A stretch of DNA of 64,000 bases from positions 14,851 through 78,850 of the forward strand of contig CAZNYC010000001.1 of the NCBI GenBank assembly GCA_964577175.1. The letters are read 5' to 3'. Origin of the DNA: an uncultured Anaerolineales bacterium. Its GTDB lineage: Bacteria > Planctomycetota > Phycisphaerae > FEN-1346. The notes under the pieces are model-generated. The model saw nothing but the letters and a program-made list of their open reading frames with translations. It was not told the DNA's origin and made no database searches. A program made the position numbers and the translations under genes. Shown here piece by piece: positions 38,283-38,477 of the stretch; position 1 is the first letter of the stretch, and each line of letters starts with the position of its first letter.

Positions 38283-38477
38283 TTATTCTTTCTCGCCCTT
38301 CCTCGGCCTGCCCGGCGCCACAGGGACGAGTCGCCGGTCCAGGCGGCGCTCCGGCCGACGCAGGAAGGAGACCTCGCCCGGCGGCCGGCCCGGCCGGCCG
38401 TGACGCCGCAGCCGCTCAAGCATCGCCCCGTCTTCTTCCGCCCGCAGAAACGCCCGCCAGTCGGTCGCCTCCGCCAC
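38283..38477 (-). pseudogene. C-terminal remnant of an IS200/IS605-type Y1 (RAYT-like) transposase
   Basis: The 64-aa ORF MAEATDWRAFLRAEEDGAMLERLRRHGRPGRPPGEVSFLRRPERRLDRRLVPVAPGRPRKGEKE matches the conserved C-terminal tail (DWREFL...RKHERTGRPLG...FL..LE..LGR.L.P.KRGPKPK) of extended IS200-like/REP-associated tyrosine transposases. The catalytic N-terminal domain (HuH, Tyr) is absent, and there is only 130 nt to the nqrF stop. Confidence 0.5.

Follow-up and report, generated by a model that had tools for sequence, protein, structure and literature searches.

Analysing a stretch of DNA 64,000 nucleotides long (hereafter, the window), we found that a 64-aa open reading frame (ORF) just downstream of nqrF is very probably the remaining 3' third of a gene encoding a HUH/Y1 transposase associated with terminal inverted repeats (TIRs; TIRYT, subclass 2.1-like), lying inside a decayed, non-autonomous TIRtron. 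The relic is an ordinary decayed copy of a mobile element of a known kind, and it is wider than the ORF. We refer to it as element 1. The features that concern it are as follows.

37019 to 37159, minus strand: element 2, a mini-TIRtron of 141 bp, in the same orientation as element 1 and 1.1 kb from it
37304 to 37784, minus strand: gene after orf127, homolog of a 163-178-aa protein of the related loci L032 and L046, with a frameshift near 37692
37797 to 38180, minus strand: orf127, which encodes a small membrane protein; it lies between the two mini-elements and is not part of the relic
38200 to 38265, minus strand: decayed remains of the 3' end of an upstream gene that has been lost (...CCDK.PLDA...), from alignment with L032 and L046/47
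38266 to 38548, minus strand: element 1, the whole relic (~283 bp), in which a probable left end is followed by the last third of the gene and then by a degenerate right repeat
38266 to 38282, minus strand: degenerate right terminal repeat, TTACGTCCAGATAAACC (L003 counterpart TATTGTGTCCCCAGATAAGCC), where the alignment with L003 continues 17 nt past the stop
38283 to 38477, minus strand: the 64-aa ORF, called identically in the sequence-only reading of this DNA that preceded our analysis and by gene callers (P0001)
38286 to 38497, minus strand: what is left of the transposase coding sequence, its final ~70 codons (nodes ~155-222 of a 223-node profile), 76-85% identical to L002/L003 by blastn
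38502 to 38548, minus strand: probable left end, reading GCGATTTCCGGGATTTTGGGGCACGTACATACCATTGTTCGCTTGAC
38610 to 39704, minus strand: nqrF, start uncertain, with a TGA stop 61 nt upstream of the relic and in frame with it

As the sequence-only reading had described, the ORF starts with a GTG (38477) preceded at 7 nt by GGAGG (38489-38485), and it ends with a TAA at 38285-38283; the product is MAEATDWRAFLRAEEDGAMLERLRRHGRPGRPPGEVSFLRRPERRLDRRLVPVAPGRPRKGEKE. The same reading took this peptide for the conserved C-terminal tail of IS200-like/RAYT-related Y1 transposases without a catalytic domain, and our searches bear out both points. The peptide had no Pfam or NCBIfam match, tblastn inside the window without composition correction returned only Arg/Gly/Pro-rich noise, and a profile search of solved structures with the tail returned nothing. 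In a collection of 15 billion proteins the protein is a singleton cluster, and a word-indexed single-sequence search returned only itself. An exhaustive HMMER search (phmmer) of 1.84 billion representative proteins gave 269 matches at E<=1e-3, including 9 at E<=1e-10, with the best non-self match at E 4.8e-16. In matches of ~225 aa (P0078, P0137, P0146, P0150 and P0035) the N-terminal part is Pfam Y1_Tnp and the query aligns to the last ~70 residues. The consensus of 40 aligned tails, DWRxxL...LRxHxRTGRPLGxxxFVxxLExxLGRRLxPxxPGRPRK, is essentially the motif quoted in the sequence-only reading.

A full-length profile of 223 nodes, built from 16 full-length or nearly full-length relatives, matched the window at nodes 155-222 only (65.8 bits, E 1e-21, hmmsearch); the catalytic part, nodes 1-154, was found neither in the six frames of 38100-38800 nor anywhere in the 64 kb. 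Compared as DNA (blastn), the window shares 84.6% identity with L003, a copy from a Phycisphaerae MAG, over 38482-38266, and 76% with L002 over 38497-38294. Homology begins at ~38497, ~20 nt before the GTG, and runs 17 nt beyond the stop to 38266. Because it extends past both ends of the ORF, the limits of the ORF are not the limits of the feature. Judged from these comparisons, the similarity to the transposase tail is far beyond chance, and composition bias at 69% GC is excluded as its source. The window retains the C-terminal extension after WSS (nodes 155-222), a trait of TIRtron/TIRYT and of TnpAY1 subclass 2.1, and lacks the ~120-aa core with HUH motif and catalytic tyrosine of Pfam PF01797 (Y1_Tnp). 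As relatives with the same tail have this core and the window does not, the window holds the remnant of a Y1_Tnp member rather than a member. A candidate continuation of the homology from the tail up to the nqrF stop, in which PVIEPLRITLRL resembles YVERNPVRAGLV, was unsupported by the profile search.

To define the family, we scanned a genome collection with a tail motif pattern requiring HGRTGRP, where the window copy reads HGRPGRP. The scan yielded 29 loci, mainly in MAGs of Planctomycetota, Phycisphaerae and Anaerolineales, with intact genes of 222-225 aa in 10 of them. Full-length relatives scored 41-58 bits on Pfam Y1_Tnp (cut-off 23) and 69.6-74.2 bits on NCBIfam REP_Tyr_transpos (NF047646), below its cut-off of 80; the best relative reached 20.9 bits on the IS200 model NF033573, short of the cut-off of 55. 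They carry the motifs NHIH/NHVH, LWQ, YVERNP/YVELNP (Y[IV]E.NP) and WSS. The full-length genes are flanked by TIRs, GGGGACAG/GGGGACAC, one repeat lying ~55 nt ahead of the ATG and the other 0-3 nt past the stop codon. The left TIR reads (T)TCCGGGGACA(G/C)nATAC and its complement follows the stop, often with short tandem sub-repeats outside. We identified TIRs with the GGGGWSAS core in L008, L012, L015, L016, L019, L025 and L028.

GGGGWSAS inverted repeats are the TIRtron/TIRYT arrangement of Di Nocera et al. 2013 (PMC3733652). The relatives resemble TIRtrons in having Y1 genes with such repeats at fixed distances, in that TIRs are also paired or clustered, and in that the family is found in PVC-type bacteria; the window copy differs in having no enzyme and in that both repeats have diverged from GGGGWSAS. 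Members of TnpAY1 subclass 2.1 have a median length of 238 aa and share a conserved C-terminal extension, no REPs were found for them, and their motifs are an NHVH-type HUH, W[EQ], Y[IV]E.NP and SS (Quentin et al. 2018, Table 1, PMC6006769). Among RAYTs, only groups 2 and 3 are associated with REPs, and it is group 1 that most resembles insertion sequences (Bertels et al. 2017, PMC5581495). Placed by motifs rather than by phylogeny, the relatives fit TnpAY1 subclass 2.1, equivalent to RAYT group 1: they share its motifs, a length of ~225-240 aa, the C-terminal extension, the lack of REPs and the presence of several copies per genome. They differ in that the published emphasis is on Proteobacteria, whereas the relatives here are in Planctomycetota and Chloroflexota MAGs, and the window fragment keeps the extension only. 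With the TnpA of IS200/IS605 (subclass 1.1) they share the catalytic fold family (PF01797), but they have Y---NP rather than Y---Q, TIRs rather than subterminal hairpins, and no tnpB partner.

Two features of the relatives concern the ends of the element. In the full-length loci L002, L012, L014, L017, L019 and L022, a -10 box (TAGGCT/TAGCAT) ends 6 nt ahead of the ATG; this position suggests that the transposase mRNA may be leaderless in these loci. The outer side of the right TIR bears short tandem repeats, for example AGATTCCCC x5 and repeats of CGGAAAGCC (L042, 4190-4270; L003, 441-470; L012, 4198-4290), with matching sub-repeats outside the left TIR.

Upstream of the tail, 38548-38502 aligns to the left ends of intact elements through the sub-repeats, the TIR core and the -35 box. 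It contains GATTTCCGG and GATTTTGGGG in tandem (38546-38528), the TIR core GGGGCACG (38531-38524) and, after the core, ATACCATTGTTCGCTTGACC with the -35 box TTGACC at 38506-38501; a -10-like TACGCT lies 16 nt downstream of TTGACC, at 38484-38479. A left-end profile from six relatives ranked 38502-38548 as the top match window-wide on both strands, but with an E of only 0.42, and a broader profile ranked it second. When the left ends of elements 1 and 2 were compared, ~2% of window segments aligned as well. Both repeats of element 1 have degenerate TIRtron/TIRYT cores (GGGGCACG on the left, ..CGTCC on the right), and the two arms show no significant mutual complementarity. We consider it likely, from this alignment, that 38502-38548 is the left end of the element.

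One alternative is that the relic is a simple 5'-truncated pseudogene fragment, made of tail and right repeat only, and that the similarity to a left end arose by chance. The weak left-end statistics and the lack of complementarity between the arms favour such a truncation, as does the fact that the right TIR alone is seen in most truncated relatives. Against it, the best left-end match in 128 kb (both strands) lies within 4 nt of the breakpoint at which tail homology begins, and it is correctly oriented, a coincidence with a prior chance of <1e-3; moreover, the upstream stretch has the architecture of the relatives, with sub-repeat, core and TTCGCTTGAC. We regard truncation as doubtful, while giving it real weight.

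Provided that this left end is genuine, one internal deletion is enough to explain the structure of element 1. The deletion would have extended from just after the -35 box to codon ~150, leaving a mini-element of ~283 bp with both ends. It would also have brought the -10-like TACGCT to 16 nt after TTGACC. Codons 1 to ~150, with the HUH motif and the catalytic Tyr, are absent. Element 1 encodes no enzyme, and the divergence of both its repeats from the GGGGWSAS core makes it improbable that it can still be mobilised, even in trans. Its right boundary is fixed by homology to the gene that precedes orf127, which begins at ~38265. This gene, of 246 aa, is intact in L032 and L046/47, where it precedes orf127, and its body is missing in the window. 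The element 1 relic and nqrF occupy the place of that body.

Copies that have lost part of the gene are frequent in this family. Of the 29 loci, 10 carry a full-length gene and 4 run into a contig end; the other 15, out of 25 that could be assessed, are truncated or have internal deletions, and their matches begin between 98 and 180 on the profile. Deleted derivatives are the commonest state among these tail-retrieved loci, a set ascertained through the tail and to which N-terminal remnants are invisible. Both TIRs are kept in L006, L016 and L019, and the right TIR in most of the other deleted loci. Intact and deleted copies occur together in single MAGs (L002 and L004; L007, L019 and L022). 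In L019, L006, L016 and L004, and in the proteins P0058, P0060 and P0063, the first 6-45 codons or the left end alone are joined to the tail, and the junctions differ in each of these internally deleted TIRtrons. The available portion of Di Nocera et al. 2013 (PMC3733652) does not describe internally deleted TIRtrons that keep a piece of the gene.

A profile search of 5.8 billion clusters gave at least 1145 matches at E<=1e-3, and the best 120 of 1145 were all 63-132 aa long. Names of tail entries among the matches listed include 'putative transposase', 'transposase, partial' and 'REP-associated tyrosine transposase'. Many short tail entries lie on short contigs, and P0003 is the second half of a split gene. 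Public collections are thus rich in tail-only 'proteins', which in the cases examined were due to truncated or internally deleted copies and to false starts, the latter because gene callers pick a GTG after Gly-Gly codons that mimic a ribosome-binding site. P0004 and P0009 resemble tail remnants read through from an upstream peptidase or alanine-dehydrogenase-like gene.

The second mini-element of the window shows its ends more clearly. The TIRs of element 2 (37019-37042 and 37127-37150) span 24 nt each with 83% complementarity, and no shuffle out of 2,000 scored as high (0/2000). The element carries GGTGACAC, a close variant of GGGGWSAS, with these significant TIRs. The order of its parts is a tandem sub-repeat (CACCGGAACTC x2), the left TIR, a -35 box TTGACC, a -10 box TAGGCC, a GTG with ~9 codons, and the right TIR; in the alignment to full-length left ends, these codons read VTGLARVAR against MARLARVVV. 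Element 2 lies upstream of a sulfatase gene, and the longest sulfatase ORF starts inside the right TIR. Two relics within 1.5 kb show past activity of the family in this lineage; the 64-kb window itself has no intact transposase copy.

Both relics are similar to MITEs and other internally deleted non-autonomous transposons in being short, in having no transposase and in keeping both ends, element 2 being 141 bp long with TIRs. Within the window, however, we found neither multiple near-identical short copies nor target-site duplications, and no further copies of the TIR of either element. The elements are therefore unlike MITEs in showing no sign of amplification, being single copies in the window, and in that the deletion is different at each related locus.

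The sequence-only reading had gone further: it took the ORF for the remnant of a RAYT/IS200-like transposase and, noting REP-like families in the window, judged it consistent with a RAYT/REP system formerly active in this genome. On such a reading, that system would have dispersed the REP-like families seen here. The part of this proposal that holds is the dead remnant of an IS200-like/RAYT-related Y1 tail; the link to REP elements is unsupported. REP_Tyr_transpos is indeed the best NCBIfam match of the full-length relatives, and some tail-fragment entries bear the name of REP-associated tyrosine transposases, but the scores of 70-74 bits are below that cut-off, and the window fragment itself does not match the RAYT model (NF047646, 80 bits) at all. 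The genes are surrounded by GGGGWSAS TIRs instead of REPs, the TIR motif has no further copies in the window, and subclass 2.1/group 1 is reported without REP association (PMC6006769, PMC5581495).

REP-like hairpins do exist in the window, as a family with the form GCGCGGCGGG(TC)-loop-(GA)CCCGCCGCGC, at 44495-44523, 48447-48498, 49802-49829 and 60459-60486. All are at least 6 kb from element 1, and they flank neither mini-element. Six related MAG loci (L002, L003, L004, L006, L017 and L027) have one copy each of the same 10-bp stem. One of these copies is 23 nt downstream of the intact L002 gene, which would agree with a RAYT/REP link, but across the six loci the distance from the hairpin to the Y1 gene is arbitrary, from 23 nt to several kb. 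Neither the window nor the six related loci gave evidence of a tie between these GC-rich hairpins and the transposase family. No inverted flanking REP or REPIN hairpins, as in a REPtron, were found, and instead of the one copy per genome of a domesticated RAYT there are several intact and decayed copies per MAG and two relics in the window. Compared with canonical RAYT/REPtrons (TnpA-REP of E. coli and Pseudomonas; subclasses 2.2 and 2.5), the relatives share the HUH/Y1 superfamily and Y---NP, but they have no flanking REP hairpins, a long C-terminal tail and scores below the NCBIfam RAYT cut-off, and they form a multi-copy family with many decayed copies. We therefore consider a RAYT origin tied to the REPs of the window very unlikely, and the 64-aa ORF is unsuited as evidence for a RAYT/REP system.

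Where the flanks were read, the hairpins lie just after genes or in intergenic positions, and the MAGs are labelled Planctomycetota, Phycisphaerae and Anaerolineales. An inverted repeat pair of 84 nt and 88% complementarity (44421-44504 and 48489-48572) brackets a ~4-kb ORF at 44441-48427, and each of its arms adjoins one GC-rich hairpin.

We also considered whether the tail has been kept or domesticated as a genuine small gene, whose product would be a basic, AT-hook-like protein of 64 aa made from a position after nqrF. The frame is uninterrupted and has its GGAGG and GTG, tail-only ORFs of 60-130 aa are very numerous in databases, all 11 invariant or near-invariant tail residues are kept in the window copy, and 4 of 40 tails weakly match Pfam AT_hook. 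By contrast, the start signals coincide with the codons CCC GGA GGT ACG CTG GTG, that is, with the ancestral internal motif P-G-G-x-L-V (Pro-Gly-Gly-Thr-Leu-Val in the window), and homology extends upstream of both. In an unrelated, independent remnant (P0172 in L042), the homologous GTG was likewise called as the start, an artefact. Thus, the GGAGG and the GTG pointed out in the sequence-only reading both exist but are not evidence of a gene; from the alignment, the open frame, the GTG and the GGAGG are inherited coding sequence and not a new gene. The point of truncation changes between loci (98 to 180 on the profile), which leaves no conserved mini-protein; the window protein is a singleton cluster, and short contigs or split genes account for many of the short entries in databases. 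In addition, Pro replaces the consensus at three conserved positions (RTGRP to RPGRP, GRPLG to GRPPG and RRLE to RRPE). A genuine small gene at this position is highly improbable.

The substitution rates give a similar picture of the relic. Between the window copy and L003, the nearest intact-type copy, dS is ~0.28, and the relic appears to be fairly young on this measure. The corresponding dN/dS is 0.54, compared with 0.38 for two intact-type copies, which suggests, from 71 codons, that constraint on the window tail may be relaxed.

The upstream gene was identified as nqrF by its Fer2, FAD_binding_6 and NAD_binding_1 architecture, and two Rnf-Nqr subunit genes precede it. After its TGA at 38612-38610, the same frame stays open for 108 codons to the TAA at 38285-38283, as would be required if the tail were a C-terminal extension of NqrF made by read-through of the TGA, but we give this reading a negligible chance, because being in phase has a chance of 1/3, long open frames are common at the 69% GC of this genome, the 40 codons from the stop to the tail have no homologs and the NAD-binding domain is already complete before the TGA. 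Neither a sigma-70 consensus promoter nor a minus-strand terminator was detected in the interval between nqrF and the relic.

The region between the two mini-elements holds orf127, whose family comprises 13 clusters. Internally deleted TIRtrons lie directly upstream of orf127 homologs, in the same orientation, in four diverged lineages (the window, L031, L034-37 and L038), and the deletion is different in each. The promoter boxes of the element are visibly kept in three of the four lineages, the window copy having only the -35 box and the -10-like hexamer; in the L038 mini-element, a deletion in the promoter region leaves the -35 and -10-like boxes too close. In the window and in L038 (after the gene), the module has a further TIR pair at its opposite side. 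No such element lies beside orf127 in L032, L046/47 or L048-L050. As orf127 proteins are 46-61% identical between lineages, whereas the window tail has 85% DNA identity to an intact-type copy, a single ancient insertion upstream of orf127 seems unlikely.

Region 37019-38548 of the window looks like a 1.5-kb cassette bounded by TIRtron ends. The recurrence beside orf127 may possibly reflect a site preference, the transfer of a TIRtron-bounded cassette, or the retention of a promoter. It is a tentative and rather improbable suggestion that mini-TIRtrons are not randomly placed, either because the Y1 enzyme targets a site or mobilises passenger genes, or because the promoter of the element has been exapted for the module. 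If the recurrence is true, it would offer a testable handle on the function of TIR-associated Y1 enzymes. Two other candidate explanations were rejected: the conserved sequence upstream of orf127, viewed as a degenerate left TIR that attracts insertions, has no match to the left-end profile, and a role of orf127 as a regular TIRtron accessory gene is contradicted by the absence of homologs from the 29 TIRtron loci. The frameshifted gene at 37304-37784 is either a pseudogene or an assembly error.

For annotation, the 64-aa 'protein' after nqrF is best entered as a transposase pseudogene in a decayed TIR-flanked element. Elsewhere in the window, a giant ORF (107-17404, plus strand, 5765 aa) has many repeats of the GDVNGDGYDDL type, resembling calcium-binding or FG-GAP repeats, and two repeats near 16846-17032 are dockerin-like by eye. 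A tandem coding repeat at 28183-28347 (plus strand) is built of units such as PEGAEH and AAKPQKEH.
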